7,052 nt of DNA, from IMG/VR virus record IMGVR_UViG_2585427745_000012, one strand, 5' to 3'. The stretch's first letter is position 1; each line of letters begins with the position of its first letter. The DNA is from a virus (taxonomy: Duplodnaviria; Heunggongvirae; Uroviricota; Caudoviricetes). A program made the translations under genes and the position numbers. Below, one piece after another: positions 1 through 7,052 of this stretch. The notes below the pieces were generated by a model. The model was not told where the DNA came from. It did no database searches and saw only the letters and a program-made list of their open reading frames with translations.

Positions 1-495
<495 letters not shown>

Positions 496-581: not shown

Positions 582-764
582 CTACGGAATGAGCGGATCT
601 TCGGGTTTGCTTCCGGCTGACTGACTGGCGCTGATTCTCTCAGCGGCCCTTTTATCAATCTGCCTGCGCCAGAAATCGCGCACTGCCCTGTACCCACCCG
701 AAAGAAGATACATAACACAGACTGCCATACAGAAGTACAGCATTACCTGATGAATAAATGTCAT
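582..764 (-). CDS. Hypothetical small protein (60 aa) with one hydrophobic segment and a basic C-terminal tail
   Basis: ATG at 764-762, stop TAG at 584-582. It has the same orientation as the late operon and lies downstream of the esterase, where small accessory or lysis genes sit in lambdoid phages. The RBS is weak, so it may not be a real gene. Confidence 0.25.
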   Translation of the reverse strand: MTFIHQVMLYFCMAVCVMYLLSGGYRAVRDFWRRQIDKRAAERISASQSAGSKPEDPLIP

Positions 765-900: not shown

Positions 901-2862
901 TCATGCCGCGATGTCCGCGTTGTTCACTTCCACCTTCACACTGTCAATCAGCAGCGTATATGTCGCCGCCTTTGATATGCCTGTCAGTTGCAGTTTGTCC
1001 GCCGCCCCTGATGCCGGAGATTTCACCAGTGTGAACGGCGTCCCCCGTTTCTCATCCAGTACCGGCGTCACCTGAATGCTGTTGTTTCCGGCAAACTCAA
1101 AAGCCAGTGTGTGCCATCCGTTATCAAAGACCCCGAACGTTTCCAGCTTCGCATTCGGCTTCTTGTGGTGCATCGCGTTCAGGTTCGTCGCATCCGTCTG
1201 CAGAAAGAAGGACATCAGCATGTCGTTGCCTTCCTCTGCCAGCGTCACTCCCTCCGGCAGGGACGACAACTGCCAGTAAATGCCCAGGGCAAACTGATTC
1301 GGCACCAGTGAACCCGGCAACTTAAACCGTACGCTCACACGTCCCCCCTTCTTCAGTAACTCCACTCCCTGTCCGGCTGCATCATGCTCCAGAAACCAGA
1401 TGTGGTTTTCCGGTTTATTCAGTTGCAGGGCCTTACCTCCCGTAGCCCCCGCATCACTGACCACCGCTTCAGCAATGTTTTTGTTAACATTGTCTCCGCT
1501 CGCCGGTTTGTGATAATAGCGCCAGCCCTGTGATGCCAGGTCTTCGCCGGACGCCAGCAGACTCATCAGGGTTCGGTTACTGACCGGGGCTTCCGGCTCT
1601 CTCTCCGTACCTTCACCGGAAGGTCCGGTGGGCTTCACCGTATCAGGCTGTTTTCCGGTAATGAATTCAGCGTTTCTCCCGGCATGCACAAGAATCGCCG
1701 TTGCCAGACGGTCGGAAATAATCCCACGACGTGCCCATGATCCAAAATGCGTTTTACGGTCGGCCGTCGTCCAGGTTTTGGCGTCCGTTCGACCACCGCC
1801 TCCGTAATACCCAATATCCGCAACATCCGGATCTTCTGACGGCTCGTTGGTACCCACATTTCGCCCGTTTTCATCCGTCATAAACGGCACAAAGAAGATT
1901 TTTTTTGCGGATTTCGTCTTGTATGCACCATACACCGCATCGTATTGCGAAGAATAAGTCTGCTTCCAGTAGTAGGTCGTGTCGCCACAAATCCAGGGAA
2001 CCGATGACGGAGAGCCCCCGAGACACTGACCTCCGAATTCCGACAGGTCAGAACGATATTTTTCCACCATGGAATCAAACAGCCCCGGCTGAGTGGCGTA
2101 TGCACCCTGTTTCAAATCAAACTCGCCCTGCATCCAGACCACTGCAAGCAGAATATTTTTAGGGTTGGCCTTCAGTGCGGCCTGAGTACGGGTAAGCAGG
2201 TCCTTGTACAGTGGCTTATCAACACCCCAGCGTGCCGAGGTCTCGCTTGCGCCGGTGGATTCGCTGAAGGTACCTTCATCGCCCGCCAAAAATGCAGAAC
2301 CACCACGGCAGCACGGAACCAGAAGAATACCGGCATTCGCCGGAATAAACGGCAACAATTTCTTCGCGATATGTAATCCCTGCCCCACGCATCCATACTG
2401 AGCTGCGCTGGCTTTCGGGTGTGAAAACTTACTCAAATCCTGAACATCATGCAGGCAGTGGTCCGCAGGAATAATGTCATTGTAGTTACAGGACGCACCA
2501 CCCGGCGTGACAGTGCTGCGACGCGCCAGCTGTTTAATACGCGGGTCCGGACGGTCATATGTCTCCGGCAGCGGAAGCCCTTCACCATACGCCATACCGT
2601 TTGACTGCCCGGCCAGGGCAACAACAAAGTAATACTCCGGGTTGCTGGTGGTGCTGATAACTGCGCCTTCTCCATCCGACGGCTTCACCACCACAGGTGT
2701 GGTGACATCACCTTCCGCCGCAATGGCCTGCATCAGGGTATAAGGCGTGATGGCCACCGGACTGCCAAATGGCTGCCACCCCTCCTTCAGTTTTTGTGTC
2801 AGTCGTTTCGCAAGGTCTGACGGCGATGCCGCCCTGACAACATCATAGTGTTTAAATGCCAT
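901..2862 (-). CDS. nanS-p: NanS-p-like prophage sialate (9-O-acetyl-N-acetylneuraminate) O-acetylesterase; N-terminal DUF1737-like region plus SASA/SGNH esterase domain plus C-terminal domain
   Basis: Long uninterrupted minus-strand ORF. The product starts MAFKHYDVVRAASPSDLAKRL, carries the serine-esterase motif ALAGQSNGMAYG, and is about 650 aa, matching the prophage esterases found just downstream of stx in Stx phages. Start chosen at ATG 2862-2860 (SD-like GGTGGAAAG upstream); an in-frame ATG at 2877-2875 has no SD. Stop TGA at 903-901. Confidence 0.75.
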   Translation of the reverse strand: MAFKHYDVVRAASPSDLAKRLTQKLKEGWQPFGSPVAITPYTLMQAIAAEGDVTTPVVVKPSDGEGAVISTTSNPEYYFVVALAGQSNGMAYGEGLPLPETYDRPDPRIKQLARRSTVTPGGASCNYNDIIPADHCLHDVQDLSKFSHPKASAAQYGCVGQGLHIAKKLLPFIPANAGILLVPCCRGGSAFLAGDEGTFSESTGASETSARWGVDKPLYKDLLTRTQAALKANPKNILLAVVWMQGEFDLKQGAYATQPGLFDSMVEKYRSDLSEFGGQCLGGSPSSVPWICGDTTYYWKQTYSSQYDAVYGAYKTKSAKKIFFVPFMTDENGRNVGTNEPSEDPDVADIGYYGGGGRTDAKTWTTADRKTHFGSWARRGIISDRLATAILVHAGRNAEFITGKQPDTVKPTGPSGEGTEREPEAPVSNRTLMSLLASGEDLASQGWRYYHKPASGDNVNKNIAEAVVSDAGATGGKALQLNKPENHIWFLEHDAAGQGVELLKKGGRVSVRFKLPGSLVPNQFALGIYWQLSSLPEGVTLAEEGNDMLMSFFLQTDATNLNAMHHKKPNAKLETFGVFDNGWHTLAFEFAGNNSIQVTPVLDEKRGTPFTLVKSPASGAADKLQLTGISKAATYTLLIDSVKVEVNNADIAA

Positions 2863-3052
2863 GGTTCTTTCCACCATCTGAAAAATAATTCTTTAAAATA
2901 CCTGACATGTAATACAGAAAAAACACAAAACCATACCTTAAATAAAAACCTCATCATCAAGCAGATATGCATGGATAAACTACAAGACGAGATATAAACC
3001 ACCCTGCATTTAAATAAACAATAAACAACATCAGAAAAATAATTCTGCTCTA

Positions 3053-3082
3053 TGGTTTACATTCAAAAATATCATTTATACT
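3053..3082 (+). promoter_or_regulatory. Candidate sigma70 promoter for the 111-aa cargo ORF
   Basis: TTTACA (3056-3061) and TATACT (3077-3082) lie in an AT-rich leader about 40 bp upstream of ATG 3123. The 15-bp spacer is short; the alternative -35 TGGTTT (3053-3058) gives an 18-bp spacer. Sequence-only prediction. Confidence 0.3.
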
Positions 3083-3122
3083 TTTCAGAACATCACCAGC
3101 AAGACATAAACAAGGAAACTAA

Positions 3123-3458
3123 ATGAAGTGGATTGTGATTGATACAGTTATCCAGCCATCATGCGGAATATCTTTTTCAGTCATATGGAGTAAAATAAAA
3201 TTAATAATCTGGTATCAATCGGATGCTTTCTTACCTCCTGAAAGTATATTTACACTGACTCACACAGGTATCATGCTCAATAACAAAGTGCTACCTGTAA
3301 CCATTTACAACGTAGCACCATTCAATAAAACATTCTGGAATTTAATCAAAAACAGCCAGGAATGTCCTACAAATACAGATAACGTATTGAATGAATGCTT
3401 TAATAACCGTTGCACTCTGCAAATATGTCCTTATGGACTAAAACAACAAAGTCCATAA
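3123..3458 (+). CDS. Hypothetical protein, 111 aa, AT-rich moron-like gene, function unknown
   Basis: ATG at 3123 preceded by a good SD (AAGGAAA, 4-5 nt spacer). AT-rich codon usage differs from the flanking phage genes. It is transcribed opposite to the late operon. The C-terminus carries 5 Cys. No family recognised by eye. Confidence 0.45.
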
Positions 3459-3462
3459 GGAG
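3428..3462. repeat. Perfect 12-bp inverted repeat (TCCTTATGGACT / AGTCCATAAGGA) with an 11-nt loop, overlapping the stop codon of the 111-aa ORF
   Basis: Read directly from the sequence. It could form a stable hairpin on either strand. Confidence 0.6.
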
Positions 3463-3475
3463 TTTACTCACATCT

Positions 3476-3514
3476 GACAAAATCAATATAAACAGCCCCT
3501 CCGGAGAGGGGCTG
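3476..3514 (-). terminator. Candidate intrinsic terminator for minus-strand transcription
   Basis: A 9-bp GC-rich stem (3493-3514, CAGCCCCTC/GAGGGGCTG, loop CGGA) is followed on the minus strand by the U-rich tract TGTTTATATTGATTTTG. There is no T-run after it on the plus strand. Confidence 0.45.
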
Positions 3515-3905
3515 GAGAGTGGCGCTATGTGCCATTGCATGGTGCCGGGTGCCTCCCGGTGAATTCAGTACCAGCACCTGAATCCGCGATTATCCCATAT
3601 ACCTACTCGCTGATTGCCCCTCCGCACAGGGGGATTCACCATGCCAGTTTCTTTTAACAAACTCCCCGCAAACCAGACAACAGTCAACCGCCTGAATTGT
3701 GAAGTATTTAAAAATTTCTCCCGCTAACTGATACCCGGCTAACAGTCTGGCGTTTTCTTTTTCAGCAACGGGAAAGCAACAACCACCACACCCGCCACCA
3801 GCACACCGTCAGCCAGCACTGACATTATCCGGCTGCTGCAATGCCACTCACAAAAACAGTAAGCAATCACTTTTTACCGTAACAAGTGATAATCCAGATA
3901 TGTAT

Positions 3906-4259
3906 CTACCCCAGATGAGTAATCCGAAGTTCATCCATACCACAGGTCCTGGCTATTCTGTTGTACTCCTGAACAAGAGCAAATAATTCTGAATTAGCAA
4001 CCATGAACTCATCGCAAACCCTCTGAATAGCATCACTATTCAGAATAATAACGTCTCTTCCCGAAAGACGATCAGGAGTACAGAACAAAACTGTCAAACG
4101 GCTGAAGGCCTTTGCTCGTGCTGCATTGACTATATCAATACGCTGCCTAAGGATGAAACACCCCGACGCCTCATCAATATTCACTCTACCCACACCATAT
4201 GAATGATAAATATTTAATGCTGAAAAAACCATTAGACCGTATAACAAACACTCAATCAA
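3906..4259 (-). CDS. Hypothetical protein (about 108-117 aa), cargo gene in late-operon orientation immediately downstream of the tRNA cluster
   Basis: The ORF opens at TTG 4259-4257; the first in-frame ATG is 4232-4230; stop TAG at 3908-3906. There is no convincing SD for either start. It shares strand and position with stxA in Stx phages but shows no resemblance to Stx. Function unknown. Confidence 0.35.
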   Translation of the reverse strand: MIECLLYGLMVFSALNIYHSYGVGRVNIDEASGCFILRQRIDIVNAARAKAFSRLTVLFCTPDRLSGRDVIILNSDAIQRVCDEFMVANSELFALVQEYNRIARTCGMDELRITHLG

Positions 4260-4372
4260 TACTTAACAGAACTTTTATTTTTGACAAACATATAATATTT
4301 TCAACAATATCCTGAGCCAGGTATATTTCAGTATAAGGCTCTGCCGGAAGGAATCTGGAAGAATGAATATAG

Positions 4373-4446
4373 CGCGCTGTACTGGATTCGAACCAGTGAC
4401 CGATTGCTTAGAAGGCAATTGCTCTGTCCGGCTGAGCTAACAACGC
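4373..4446 (-). tRNA. argO: tRNA-Arg (anticodon UCU), argO-like
   Basis: Manual fold on the minus strand: acceptor GCGTTGT/ACAGCGC, D-arm GCTC-AGCCGGACA-GAGC, anticodon arm ATTGC-CTTCTAA-GCAAT (anticodon TCT), T-arm ACTGG-TTCGAAT-CCAGT. CCA is not encoded. Confidence 0.9.
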
Positions 4447-4546: not shown

Positions 4547-4622
4547 TGGTGGCCCTTGCTGGATTTGAACCAGCGACCTGGCGATTATGAGTCGCTCGCT
4601 CTCACCACTGAGCTAAAGGGCC
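4547..4622 (-). tRNA. ileZ: tRNA-Ile2 (anticodon CAU, lysidine type; ileX/ileZ-like)
   Basis: Minus-strand sequence GGCCCTTTAGCTCAGTGGTGAGAGCGAGCGACTCATAATCGCCAGGTCGCTGGTTCAAATCCAGCAAGGGCCACCA folds canonically (acceptor GGCCCTT/AAGGGCC, anticodon loop CTCATAA, T-loop TTCAAAT, encoded CCA). It closely resembles E. coli ileX from memory; an elongator tRNA-Met cannot be fully excluded from sequence alone. Confidence 0.88.
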
Positions 4623-4658: not shown

Positions 4659-4685
4659 AATAAAAAACCCGCTCGGCGGCGGGTT
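4659..4685 (-). terminator. tR'-like intrinsic terminator of the short pR' transcript
   Basis: On the minus strand, stem AACCCGC / GCGGGTT with loop CGCCGA is followed by TTTTTTATTG, about 65 nt downstream of the predicted pR' start. Confidence 0.6.
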
Positions 4686-4716: not shown

Positions 4717-4760
4717 GCCCATCGTTATGACGAATTTACCACAGATTCCGGAAAAATCAA
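4717..4760 (-). promoter_or_regulatory. Late promoter pR'-like with pause/qut element
   Basis: On the minus strand: -35 TTGATT (4760-4755), 16-nt spacer, -10 TAAATT (4738-4733), then CGTCATAACGATGGG. The TAAATT -10 and the downstream AACGAT element mirror lambda pR' and its sigma-dependent pause signal as I recall them. It lies 6-30 bp downstream of the Q stop. Confidence 0.55.
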
Positions 4761-4765
4761 CCTTG

Positions 4766-5587
4766 TTACCTAGTTACCTTTTTTAACTGCCGCTCAGCCC
4801 ATGCTTCTTCAATATCAAACCGGGTCACCAGCGCATCATAGAATTTCTTAACTGTTTTTTCCCATGACGCGCGTGTTATCTGGTTTGTCACCTCGCATAT
4901 AGCATTAAATGCCTCCGTTGATGGTAGTCTTTCATAGCCACGACCACCACAACGCTGGCAGTCTCTGATAACAGGCATACCACGTTTTACCGACTCTTCA
5001 CGGTGAATGGCGACACCACGCCCACGGCAATCCTTACAGGCGGTGGAAACCTCACCCTTTCCGCCACACTCCGGACAGGCAACTTTTACCACCTCCCTGA
5101 CTTTTTTCCATTCTTCCCAGTAAGACGGATACACACCTTTCGTACACTTTGCCCATACCGGCGGCTTACCATCCGGATACTGGACCTTGTTTGTAAAAAC
5201 TATGCTTTCAATAAATTTTTCCCCATAGCAACAAGGGCACTGCTTTTTACTCGCTGCGCTGCGGGCATAATCCTCAAAAGCGTACGAAGCCATAATGCGC
5301 ATCACTACCGGTTTTATTTCTGCCGGAAGTTTTCTCAACGCCGCCACACGATCGCACCGACTGAGTGCATAATCTGCCAGTAATTCTGTTGCCCGCACCC
5401 TGTCATTCATACTGATGCCCATTTTCCCCAGGAACGCAGAAAAACCCATCTCAGCCCGATTCTGTGTCATGCCCTGCGCGGCCATCACATCAGTGATACT
5501 CAGCGCATCTTTTGACGTTGAGGCCGATGCATCGGTCAGGCCAGGGGATTTTGGGGAGTAGTATTTCGGTAAATCTTCCAGTTTCAT
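4766..5587 (-). CDS. Q: Late-gene antitermination protein Q (lambda-type Q family) with an enlarged zinc-finger region
   Basis: 273-aa product. Blocks YSPKSPGLTD, TDVMAAQGMTQNRAEMGFSAFLGK, ASYAFEDYARSAA, CQRCGGRGYERLP and the C-terminus WEKTVKKFYDALV...KVTR align with lambda Q as recalled. Its position (after rusA, before pR' and the tRNAs) is canonical. The start ATG overlaps the rusA stop (ATGA). Confidence 0.8.
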   Translation of the reverse strand: MKLEDLPKYYSPKSPGLTDASASTSKDALSITDVMAAQGMTQNRAEMGFSAFLGKMGISMNDRVRATELLADYALSRCDRVAALRKLPAEIKPVVMRIMASYAFEDYARSAASKKQCPCCYGEKFIESIVFTNKVQYPDGKPPVWAKCTKGVYPSYWEEWKKVREVVKVACPECGGKGEVSTACKDCRGRGVAIHREESVKRGMPVIRDCQRCGGRGYERLPSTEAFNAICEVTNQITRASWEKTVKKFYDALVTRFDIEEAWAERQLKKVTR

Positions 5588-5958
5588 TTTTTGACCTGCT
5601 CTTCATGCATTATGGGGTAAATCTTCACCCCCAGACGTCCACCAGATACTGGCTGACCACGAACGATATTGATTTCATCAAACTGCTCATCGTCCATTAA
5701 CACTCCCGCATGCGTCAGCGCATCCAGCGGTGCTTTCAGGATATTGTCCAGGTCGCGACGACGCTTATCCGGTGGCTCTGCAATCACCTTTATCGCCAGC
5801 CTTCCGGACAGGCTTAATTTCAGCCGCTGCTGGCGAACAATAAGCGCCACAGCCCGGCGATAACGCTTTCCCTCCTCCGAGATAAAATATGTGCTGCCAC
5901 GGCGTCGCCAGTAAGTGTTCACCGTCGGCGGGTAAGGTAAAACCAAATCTATGAGCAT
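5584..5958 (-). CDS. rusA: RusA-family Holliday junction resolvase (crossover junction endodeoxyribonuclease)
   Basis: 124 aa. The N-terminus LPYPPTVNTYWRRRG...SEEGKRYR and the PDKRRRDLDNILKAPLDALTHAGVLMDDEQ block carrying the catalytic acidic residues resemble E. coli RusA. Good SD (AGAGGTGA) before ATG 5958. Confidence 0.85.
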   Translation of the reverse strand: MLIDLVLPYPPTVNTYWRRRGSTYFISEEGKRYRRAVALIVRQQRLKLSLSGRLAIKVIAEPPDKRRRDLDNILKAPLDALTHAGVLMDDEQFDEINIVRGQPVSGGRLGVKIYPIMHEEQVKK

Positions 5959-5970
5959 CAGTCACCTCTT

Positions 5971-7052
5971 TTACCCAAGCACGCCAGTTGCAAAGGCGTG
6001 ATCAAGAAAACGAAAAATTAAATCAACCTGAGAACCATGCTTTTCTTCGAACGCCAGAGGATCCGCATGAAGCTCGTTGTGATGCTCCCGACACAGCGGT
6101 AGCGTGAAAATATCGTGAGATTTTGTCCCCATTCCGCCCTGACCATGACCAATCAGGTGATGGGGATCGTCGGCTGGCTTACCACAACACGCACACGGCT
6201 GTGTCTTCACCCAGCGTGTGTATTTCTCGTTAACCCAGCGGCGACGTTTAGGTCGTTTCATGAAAGATTCCGGAGACTCAGGATCAACGGCAATGCTGAC
6301 CACCGTCTCTTCCTGTGGCGGGTTTTGCTGGTGGGCGTGAGGCAGCGGCGCAAGATTTTTTGTGCGCTGCTTCAGTATGCTGGTGGCGGTCTGCTCTCCC
6401 GGTACGATGTCGCTTTCACGGTACATTGAGCGGATTTTTTCCGCACGCAACCCCAGCGAACGACGTAATACCGCTTCCGGTAGCGCGTCCGCCACCTGAT
6501 TGCGGACCGCCCACCAGGATAATTCAGCCAGCGATAATTCCCGTTCCTGCGAGCCATTCATTGCATGGCGTATGACGTCAATCATCCATGCAGACAGGTT
6601 TTGGTGAGCAAGTTGCCCGAGTGATTCGGAGGTCTGGTCGCGCAGCTGGTTGTCGCAGTGCCAGCACAACACCATTGCGCCGGTACCATAACGGTGAATG
6701 ACGGTTTCACTGTGGTGATAATCGCCGTGTTGCCACTGGCAGGATTTAACATGGCGCAGTAACCAGTCAGACAATGCGCCAGCGCCACCAGCAGCACGAA
6801 TCACTCGTTCGTCGCTGAAAAATGGCAGTAATGATTTATCCTCCGCCAGCGGCTGGCGAACGGCAGGAACGACCCCGGACGGCAGATTACGCATGCTTTT
6901 CGGTTCCGGCTCCACCAGTACCCGGGTATTGTGGAATACCGGCATGGATTCACGGCCCGGCTTAACGATCACCAGCCCGAGTTCCGGTACCAGAACAGGT
7001 CGAAGTAATACCCGCACGTTACCTCCAGATGCGTTGCTGGAATGTGCGGGAC
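5971..7052 (-). CDS. Lambdoid prophage DUF968-like protein with C-terminal HNH-type Cys/His motif (YdfU-like); 5' end beyond the window
   Basis: The frame is open to the window edge with no stop upstream of the reported GTG at 7017. The C-terminal region CACCGKPADDPHHLIGHGQGG...CREHHNELH is HNH-like. It sits immediately upstream of rusA as in other lambdoid prophages. Stop TAA at 5973-5971. Family assignment is from memory. Confidence 0.6.
   Translation of the reverse strand, partial: PAHSSNASGGNVRVLLRPVLVPELGLVIVKPGRESMPVFHNTRVLVEPEPKSMRNLPSGVVPAVRQPLAEDKSLLPFFSDERVIRAAGGAGALSDWLLRHVKSCQWQHGDYHHSETVIHRYGTGAMVLCWHCDNQLRDQTSESLGQLAHQNLSAWMIDVIRHAMNGSQERELSLAELSWWAVRNQVADALPEAVLRRSLGLRAEKIRSMYRESDIVPGEQTATSILKQRTKNLAPLPHAHQQNPPQEETVVSIAVDPESPESFMKRPKRRRWVNEKYTRWVKTQPCACCGKPADDPHHLIGHGQGGMGTKSHDIFTLPLCREHHNELHADPLAFEEKHGSQVDLIFRFLDHAFATGVLG

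Follow-up and report, generated by a model that had tools for sequence, protein, structure and literature searches.

A very probable iraL moron, encoding a small RssB anti-adaptor, lies inverted in the late region of a lambdoid prophage

The stretch of DNA analysed here, 7,052 nucleotides from a virus record (IMG/VR IMGVR_UViG_2585427745_000012) and referred to throughout as the window, carries part of a lambdoid late region on its minus strand and, facing this on the plus strand, a small gene of 111 codons that we identify as iraL (Table 1). The pR'-like late promoter consists of TTGATT and TAAATT with 16 nt between them, and AACGAT follows six bases after the -10, which we take to match the layout of pR' and the pause-inducing element in lambda; the leader transcript that is implied from pR' to tR' would be short, at approximately 50–60 nt. 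Since Q, the pR'-like promoter and tR' all lie upstream on the opposite strand, the sequence-only reading was right to place the small gene in convergent orientation to the late operon. The tRNA with the CAT anticodon is assigned to Met by ARAGORN and to Ile in RefSeq, and the number of tRNAs in the interval from tR' to the accessory genes ranges from one to three among related prophages. The phrog_2873 ORF is present in 50 of the 80 viral loci that were fetched and unannotated in the RefSeq record examined; its profile begins at residue 10, indicating that the real start is probably ATG 4232. With the DUF3927/TciB-like ORF, the interval from the tRNAs to the sRNA gene contains a second small accessory gene. 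A RefSeq pseudo entry for a 'hypothetical protein' at about 3529–3654 on the plus strand overlaps the sRNA gene and is probably spurious. For the esterase gene, the mechanical ORF begins at 2877, and the CDS length in RefSeq indicates ATG 2862 as the start, as does the point described below at which homology breaks off. In other strains the holin, lysis and structural genes lie past the esterase gene. In the window the late operon is interrupted by an IS3-family element inserted downstream of the DUF1378 gene, and strains without this element match the window at 100% from base 494 onward; given this insertion, phage-level regulation in the window prophage may differ.

Table 1. Positions of the features in the window and the evidence for each
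Feature	Position	Strand	Evidence or remark
End of IS3-family element	1-493		transposase C-terminus at 7-453
DUF1378 gene	582-764	-	
nanS-p-like SASA esterase gene	901..2862	-	Pfam DUF1737 + SASA + DUF6645; first late gene downstream of iraL
iraL moron cassette	2864..3493	.	630 bp, 32% GC; comparison with iraL-less PPwrbA_EH2201
Putative -35 hexamer TTTACA	3056..3061	+	5/6 to consensus; identical in CFT073
Putative -10 hexamer TATACT	3077..3082	+	5/6 to consensus; identical in CFT073
Transcription start (predicted by homology)	3090	+	CFT073 5' RACE end aligned
Shine-Dalgarno AAGGA	3112..3116	+	6 nt before ATG
iraL CDS, RssB anti-adaptor (very probable), 111 aa	3123..3458	+	homology to CFT073 IraL, NF007393, 8TWD
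Motif C81-x10-C92-x4-C97-x4-C102-P-Y-G (residues 81-105)	3363..3437	+	
Perfect 12-bp stem with 10-nt loop	3428..3461	+	spans stop codon, no U-tract; folding against shuffles
STnc100-family sRNA gene	3484..3673	-	Rfam RF02076, 132.4 bits (gathering score 47)
sRNA terminator	3493-3514	-	GC-rich hairpin, then T-run
DUF3927/TciB-like ORF, 43 aa	3739-3870	-	PF13064, E = 2e-27; phrog_1470, category 'moron'
phrog_2873 ORF (unknown function)	3906-4259	-	E = 4e-70
Two phage tRNA genes, tRNA-Arg(UCU) and CAT-anticodon tRNA	4372-4446 and 4547-4622	-	
tR'-like intrinsic terminator	4666..4685	-	7-bp GC-rich stem, then TTTTATT
pR'-like late promoter	4721..4760	-	hexamers 4760-4733; AACGAT 4726-4721
Late antiterminator gene Q	4766..5587	-	Pfam PF03589 Antiterm, E = 2e-54; annotated antitermination protein
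rusA	5584-5958	-	
DUF968 gene	5971-7017	-	

The ORF of interest runs from ATG 3123 to the TAA at 3456–3458. Its length alone is modest evidence for a gene, as in 2000 dinucleotide-preserving shuffles of the AT-rich 630-bp cassette in which it lies the longest ORF had a mean length of 55 ± 15 aa and reached 111 aa in 10; it is homology that decides. The product matches IraL of uropathogenic E. coli CFT073, encoded by c1429 in the potB prophage (Hryckowian et al., 2014, mBio; PMC4045071), at 110 of 111 residues, the sole change being A65 for V65. The coding sequence has 3 mismatches over 336 nt, within the criterion of at least 95% nucleotide identity used in that study, and the cassette DNA is 98% identical to CFT073 over the aligned stretch, within the corresponding criterion of at least 96% for the promoter and upstream region. 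The NCBIfam model NF007393, which describes the IraM/IraL/RssC anti-adaptors and has a curated cut-off of 121 bits, was matched with 162.4 bits (residues 1–110 on profile positions 1–113 of 114), and residues 1–78 matched chain A of PDB entry 8TWD, IraM bound to RssB, with E = 2e-32. A PHROGs search also matched the product, a Pfam-A scan of the ORF returned no match at E ≤ 0.01, and the precomputed database tags for relatives of IraL give PF11183, which is shown as PmrD. We are highly confident that ORF 3123–3458 is the lambdoid-prophage moron iraL, whose product is a small RssB anti-adaptor. The gene is already known, having been characterised in 2014 within a family for which there is a solved structure. 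The sequence-only reading had found the 111-aa ORF, now backed by homology, and had remarked on its AT-rich codon usage, which is confirmed by a GC content of 34% and GC3 of 32% as compared with 55% and 59% for the esterase gene (50% GC for the whole window); its statement that the protein belonged to no family that it recognised is superseded by the assignment to IraM/IraL/RssC.

An alternative is that the ORF is the orthologue of K-12 iraM, the expression of which is induced by Mg2+ starvation through PhoP and the product of which binds both domains of RssB. The identical DNA in many E. coli chromosomes does carry the RefSeq product name 'anti-adapter protein IraM', the two proteins fall under the same NCBIfam model, and a PhoP-box-like sequence, TGTTTATTGTTTATTTA, with one mismatch to the consensus, is present at 3011–3027 on the minus strand, upstream of the promoter. 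However, a PhoP-box-like match of this quality is at chance level, occurring at least once in 173 of 200 shuffles, and PhoP control of iraL was rejected on this basis. Amino acid identity to K-12 IraM is 63%, below the 95% or more that would be expected of an iraM gene, as against 99% to IraL; the upstream DNA, and with it the promoter context, is unrelated to that of K-12 iraM; and the window gene occupies a lambdoid late region, K-12 iraM a site next to e14. Expression of iraL in log phase has been published, and in the same study the iraL and iraM matches did not overlap (PMC4045071). By that criterion, at least 95% identity to iraL without overlap with iraM, the window gene is iraL and not iraM, and we regard the iraM reading as extremely improbable. 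The RefSeq label 'IraM' is a family-level name that masks the distinction between the two genes. [quoted passage not shown]

The limits of the cassette were determined by comparison with PPwrbA_EH2201, a related prophage that lacks iraL. Homology to this prophage ends at 2863, immediately before the ATG of the esterase gene, and resumes at 3494, within the stem of the sRNA terminator; in PPwrbA_EH2201 the slot from the sRNA terminator to the esterase start holds an unrelated 227-bp spacer. The cassette thus separates elements that are adjacent in the related prophage, and its GC content is 32% as compared with 55% on both sides, with individual segments at 29–34%. Its hexamers are identical to those of the RACE-mapped CFT073 promoter and would provide iraL with a promoter of its own. 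The cassette is therefore a fit to the moron pattern in the Juhala/Hendrix sense, being AT-rich and self-contained with a putative sigma-70-type promoter, and the moron architecture that had been proposed from the letters alone is upheld by the insertion relative to PPwrbA_EH2201, the deviant GC content and the CFT073-identical hexamers. As with other lambdoid morons, such as stxAB and the lambda genes bor and lom, the cassette is autonomous, deviates in composition, lies in the Q-to-lysis region and benefits the lysogen. The stxAB genes, in contrast, are co-oriented with pR' and largely driven by it, whereas iraL is inverted and would be expressed from its own promoter in the uninduced state.

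[quoted passage not shown] This 32-nt end aligns with 3090–3121 of the window with 2 mismatches, which would place the start of transcription 7 nt downstream of TATACT. From 3090 up through the -35 the only difference from CFT073 is the -1 base (3089), with both hexamers and the spacer identical, so that base -1 and two leader bases differ overall. The sequence-only reading had noted promoter-like hexamers and a strong Shine-Dalgarno sequence, and both were found: TTTACA and TATACT each match the consensus at 5 of 6 positions, separated by a suboptimal spacer of 15 nt, and AAGGA is placed 6 nt from the ATG. A generic promoter scan that allowed spacers of 16–18 nt only did not list the iraL promoter, because of this 15-nt spacer. 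In two of the more diverged alleles of iraL, with 77% and 60% identity of the protein, the -35 is ATTACA or GTTACA, retaining the TTACA core, and the -10 is TATGAT, while the upstream DNA around the hexamers diverges; this suggests that the hexamers may be under constraint across alleles. Deletion of iraL in CFT073 lowers both the level and the stability of RpoS in log phase (PMC4045071). Expression in the lysogen, as predicted from the letters alone, is published for the CFT073 copy, by 5' RACE and by the effect of the deletion on RpoS stability, and the window copy shares its -35 and -10. Published data also have iraL up in a fur mutant, and up by 1.6 log2 after a shift from 23 to 37 °C.

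Another possibility is that iraL is a silent passenger in a decaying prophage, silenced by H-NS or otherwise unexpressed and without effect on the host. H-NS targets typically have a GC content such as the 29–34% of the cassette, an IS element disrupts the prophage and the published induction at 37 °C is compatible with relief of silencing. Against this, the -35 and -10 are identical to those of a CFT073 promoter that is active in log phase, and the ORF is intact and almost invariant over hundreds of genomes and 253 viral contigs. We consider it very unlikely that the gene is silent, and favour iraL as a functional moron.

The hairpin at the iraL stop codon was also part of the sequence-only reading. 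As a structure it stands: the stem is perfect over 12 bp, and its predicted ΔG of -17.5 kcal/mol (z = -4.95) was not reached by any of 200 shuffles. As a terminator it is not supported. It is followed by GUUU alone, for which reason it is not a canonical intrinsic terminator, and the intrinsic-terminator scan called none on the plus strand. When the same region was folded for three diverged alleles (88%, 77% and 60%) and for K-12 iraM, z ranged from -0.9 to +0.65, demonstrating that the hairpin is not conserved. The next hairpin, at 3493–3514, has a T-run on the minus strand only and is the terminator of the opposite strand. It belongs to the STnc100-family sRNA gene, which converges on iraL and ends 26 nt from that gene's stop codon. 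It is a matter of speculation that iraL mRNA reading on past its hairpin would be antisense to this sRNA.

The profile and AlphaFold check that had been suggested for the ORF was run, with the NF007393 match given above and a structural model (AF2) built on 42 family sequences. The model has a pLDDT of 84, with strands predicted at residues 2–66 and a helix at 69–77, and superimposes on 8twd_A with an rmsd of 1.2 Å and a target-normalised TM of 0.90; the next match is PmrD (4HN7). The predicted structure is thus a PmrD-like antiparallel beta-barrel with a flanking helix, as in IraM (8TWD). PmrD, the PhoP–PmrA connector (4HN7, 2JSO), shares the beta-barrel with a Foldseek probability of 1.00 and TM values of 0.72–0.75, and according to published work PmrD and IraL both bind the receiver domain of a response regulator. 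PmrD differs in having 13–14% identity to IraL and in its target, which is PmrA rather than RssB; moreover, PmrD chains of 85–88 residues align to the IraL model over 85 columns, which would leave PmrD with no counterpart of the Cys-rich tail.

The IraM–RssB structure paper (8TWD) describes three contact clusters, of which clusters II and III touch the C-terminal domain and linker of RssB. IraM makes contact with RssB through 14 residues, and IraL has the same amino acid at 10 of these positions, including all five of cluster I, which faces the N-terminal domain; the four changes from IraM to IraL (T13S, L75I, H63N and I64V) are all in clusters II and III. IraL was shown to bind RssB by two-hybrid and pull-down, through the N-terminal domain only (PMC4045071), and the pattern of contact changes, a comparison of aligned residues, would fit this report. 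We propose that in the lysogen iraL would be transcribed from its own sigma-70 promoter with a start at 3090, independently of the late promoter, and that the PmrD-like beta-barrel of IraL would bind the receiver (N-terminal) domain of RssB. RssB is the adaptor that passes RpoS to ClpXP; when sequestered by IraL it would allow RpoS to escape degradation, and RpoS would then be stabilised even in exponential growth, leaving the general stress response of the host pre-armed. Sequestration of RssB, as published for the 99%-identical CFT073 protein, is the most likely mechanism of the window IraL.

The C-terminal part of the protein is the less familiar one. IraL has cysteines at positions 14, 81, 92, 97 and 102, and the Cys-rich C-terminal half that had been pointed out from the translation proved to be shared: the four tail cysteines, C81, C92, C97 and C102, are found in 42 of 42 IraM/IraL-family sequences, down to 24% identity. 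Over these 42 sequences M1, C81, C97 and C102 were the only fully invariant columns, with C92 present in at least 90%, and all four cysteines were invariant in an alignment of 27 tails. The four-cysteine tail is, on the strength of these alignments, an apparent signature of the family. In the IraM structure paper, which gives the only crystal structure, residues 79–107 were removed as proteolytically unstable and the tail was called less conserved and flexible; in the IraL model it has a pLDDT of 52–72, which is moderate confidence. A profile of the tail searched against the PDB gave nothing significant, with CCCH zinc fingers at E = 1.8–7.5 as the only matches, a lead rather than evidence, and a literature search on IraM and cysteine or zinc found no discussion of the four-cysteine tail. 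We infer that the four tail cysteines may bind a metal, as a Cys4 site.

The iraL gene and its promoter are present in 1446 of 5426 complete E. coli genomes, with one to three copies in each, on 253 IMG/VR viral contigs and in four sequenced phage records. The IraM/IraL family as a whole has 74 representatives at 50% clustering, and members with checked source names come from Escherichia, Salmonella, Citrobacter, Klebsiella, Enterobacter, Kosakonia, Cronobacter, Franconibacter and Intestinirhabdus. The architecture of the iraL locus is common to CFT073, strain SCU-172 and phage vB_EcoS-640R1. In CFT073 iraL likewise occupies an inverted position in the lambdoid-prophage slot between the DUF3927/sRNA region and the esterase gene, with 110 of 111 residues, the -35 and the -10 identical and, by alignment, the same start of transcription; CFT073 differs in that an IS200 separates Q from the tRNAs and the esterase gene is truncated, whereas in the window the esterase gene is intact and the IS3-family insertion lies further downstream. 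Among the IMG/VR loci, the relative orientation of every element is as in the window in all 80 that were fetched. The distance from the iraL stop to the sRNA gene is exactly 26 nt in 79 of these, the eightieth ending at a contig edge. The esterase gene was detected in 78 and in 75 of them is placed 245–246 nt upstream of iraL; the segment from the sRNA gene to Q varies. The fixed 26-nt spacing between sRNA gene and iraL appears to be unreported in the literature that we searched.

The slot and the inversion are both shared with the window by the 88%, 77% and 60% alleles, which follow different Q families; two of them, those of 88% and 77%, also adjoin an STnc100-family gene. The 77% allele is located directly downstream of stx2AB and convergent with it, and so are alleles of 72–75% in 41 records of Stx2-converting phages; for example, gp43 of the Stx2c phage 1717 is an IraL-like gene beside stx2c (locus L092, 4501–4824). 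Phages of the Stx2c, Stx2a and Stx2k types carry these stx2-adjacent IraL-like genes, for which many of the records have no annotation. In one such locus (L087, 3206–3541) an STnc100-family gene lies between stx2AB and the IraL-like gene. A literature search for IraM and Stx2 returned nothing on copies of IraL-like genes in Stx phages.

Given the gene order, a Q-modified transcript from pR' can arrive at the lysis genes only by crossing iraL in antisense. In lambda, terminators are read through by polymerase that Q has modified, and we infer that Q-dependent late transcription running antisense through iraL would lower its expression on induction. The retained inverted orientation could be compatible with such an antisense switch, and equally with simple inheritance of the cassette. 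The cassette may in this way act as a convergent-transcription unit, in which IraL and the stabilisation of RpoS are turned off at induction or are modulated by the sRNA. An extension of this idea is that iraL mainly serves the phage, a rise in RpoS or its loss through transcription collision tuning the stability of the lysogen or the timing of lysis, and that the orientation is a selected switch. Consistent with this, alleles of 60–100% identity lie inverted in the slot that the STnc100 sRNA gene and nanS-p delimit, the arrangement persists with three Q families and in the Stx2c phage 1717, and the anatomy of pR', tR' and Q obliges late transcripts to cross iraL antisense. However, the conserved orientation may have been inherited with the cassette, and a benefit at the level of the host is already documented. 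We think it rather unlikely that service to the phage is the main role of iraL; this reading adds to the main explanation, an anti-adaptor moron that acts on host RpoS, and is not exclusive of it. More tentatively than for the identity of the gene, we raise the possibility that the tail is a Cys4 metal or redox module which controls the stability or activity of the anti-adaptor, and that the convergent unit switches or modulates IraL through induction or the sRNA.

With iraL, the rewiring of a core host stress pathway by a prophage has already been documented, and finding the gene in the window adds nothing new in that respect. In growing cells IraL maintains a high level of RpoS, and it shows enrichment among uropathogenic E. 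coli and in Shigella. What goes beyond the known gene is modest: the four-cysteine tail, the tail-to-tail pairing with an STnc100-type sRNA and the IraL-like genes beside stx2. If the proposals made here are true, the cysteine tail and the convergent transcription from the sRNA gene and the late promoter would add a regulatory layer to a known gene.
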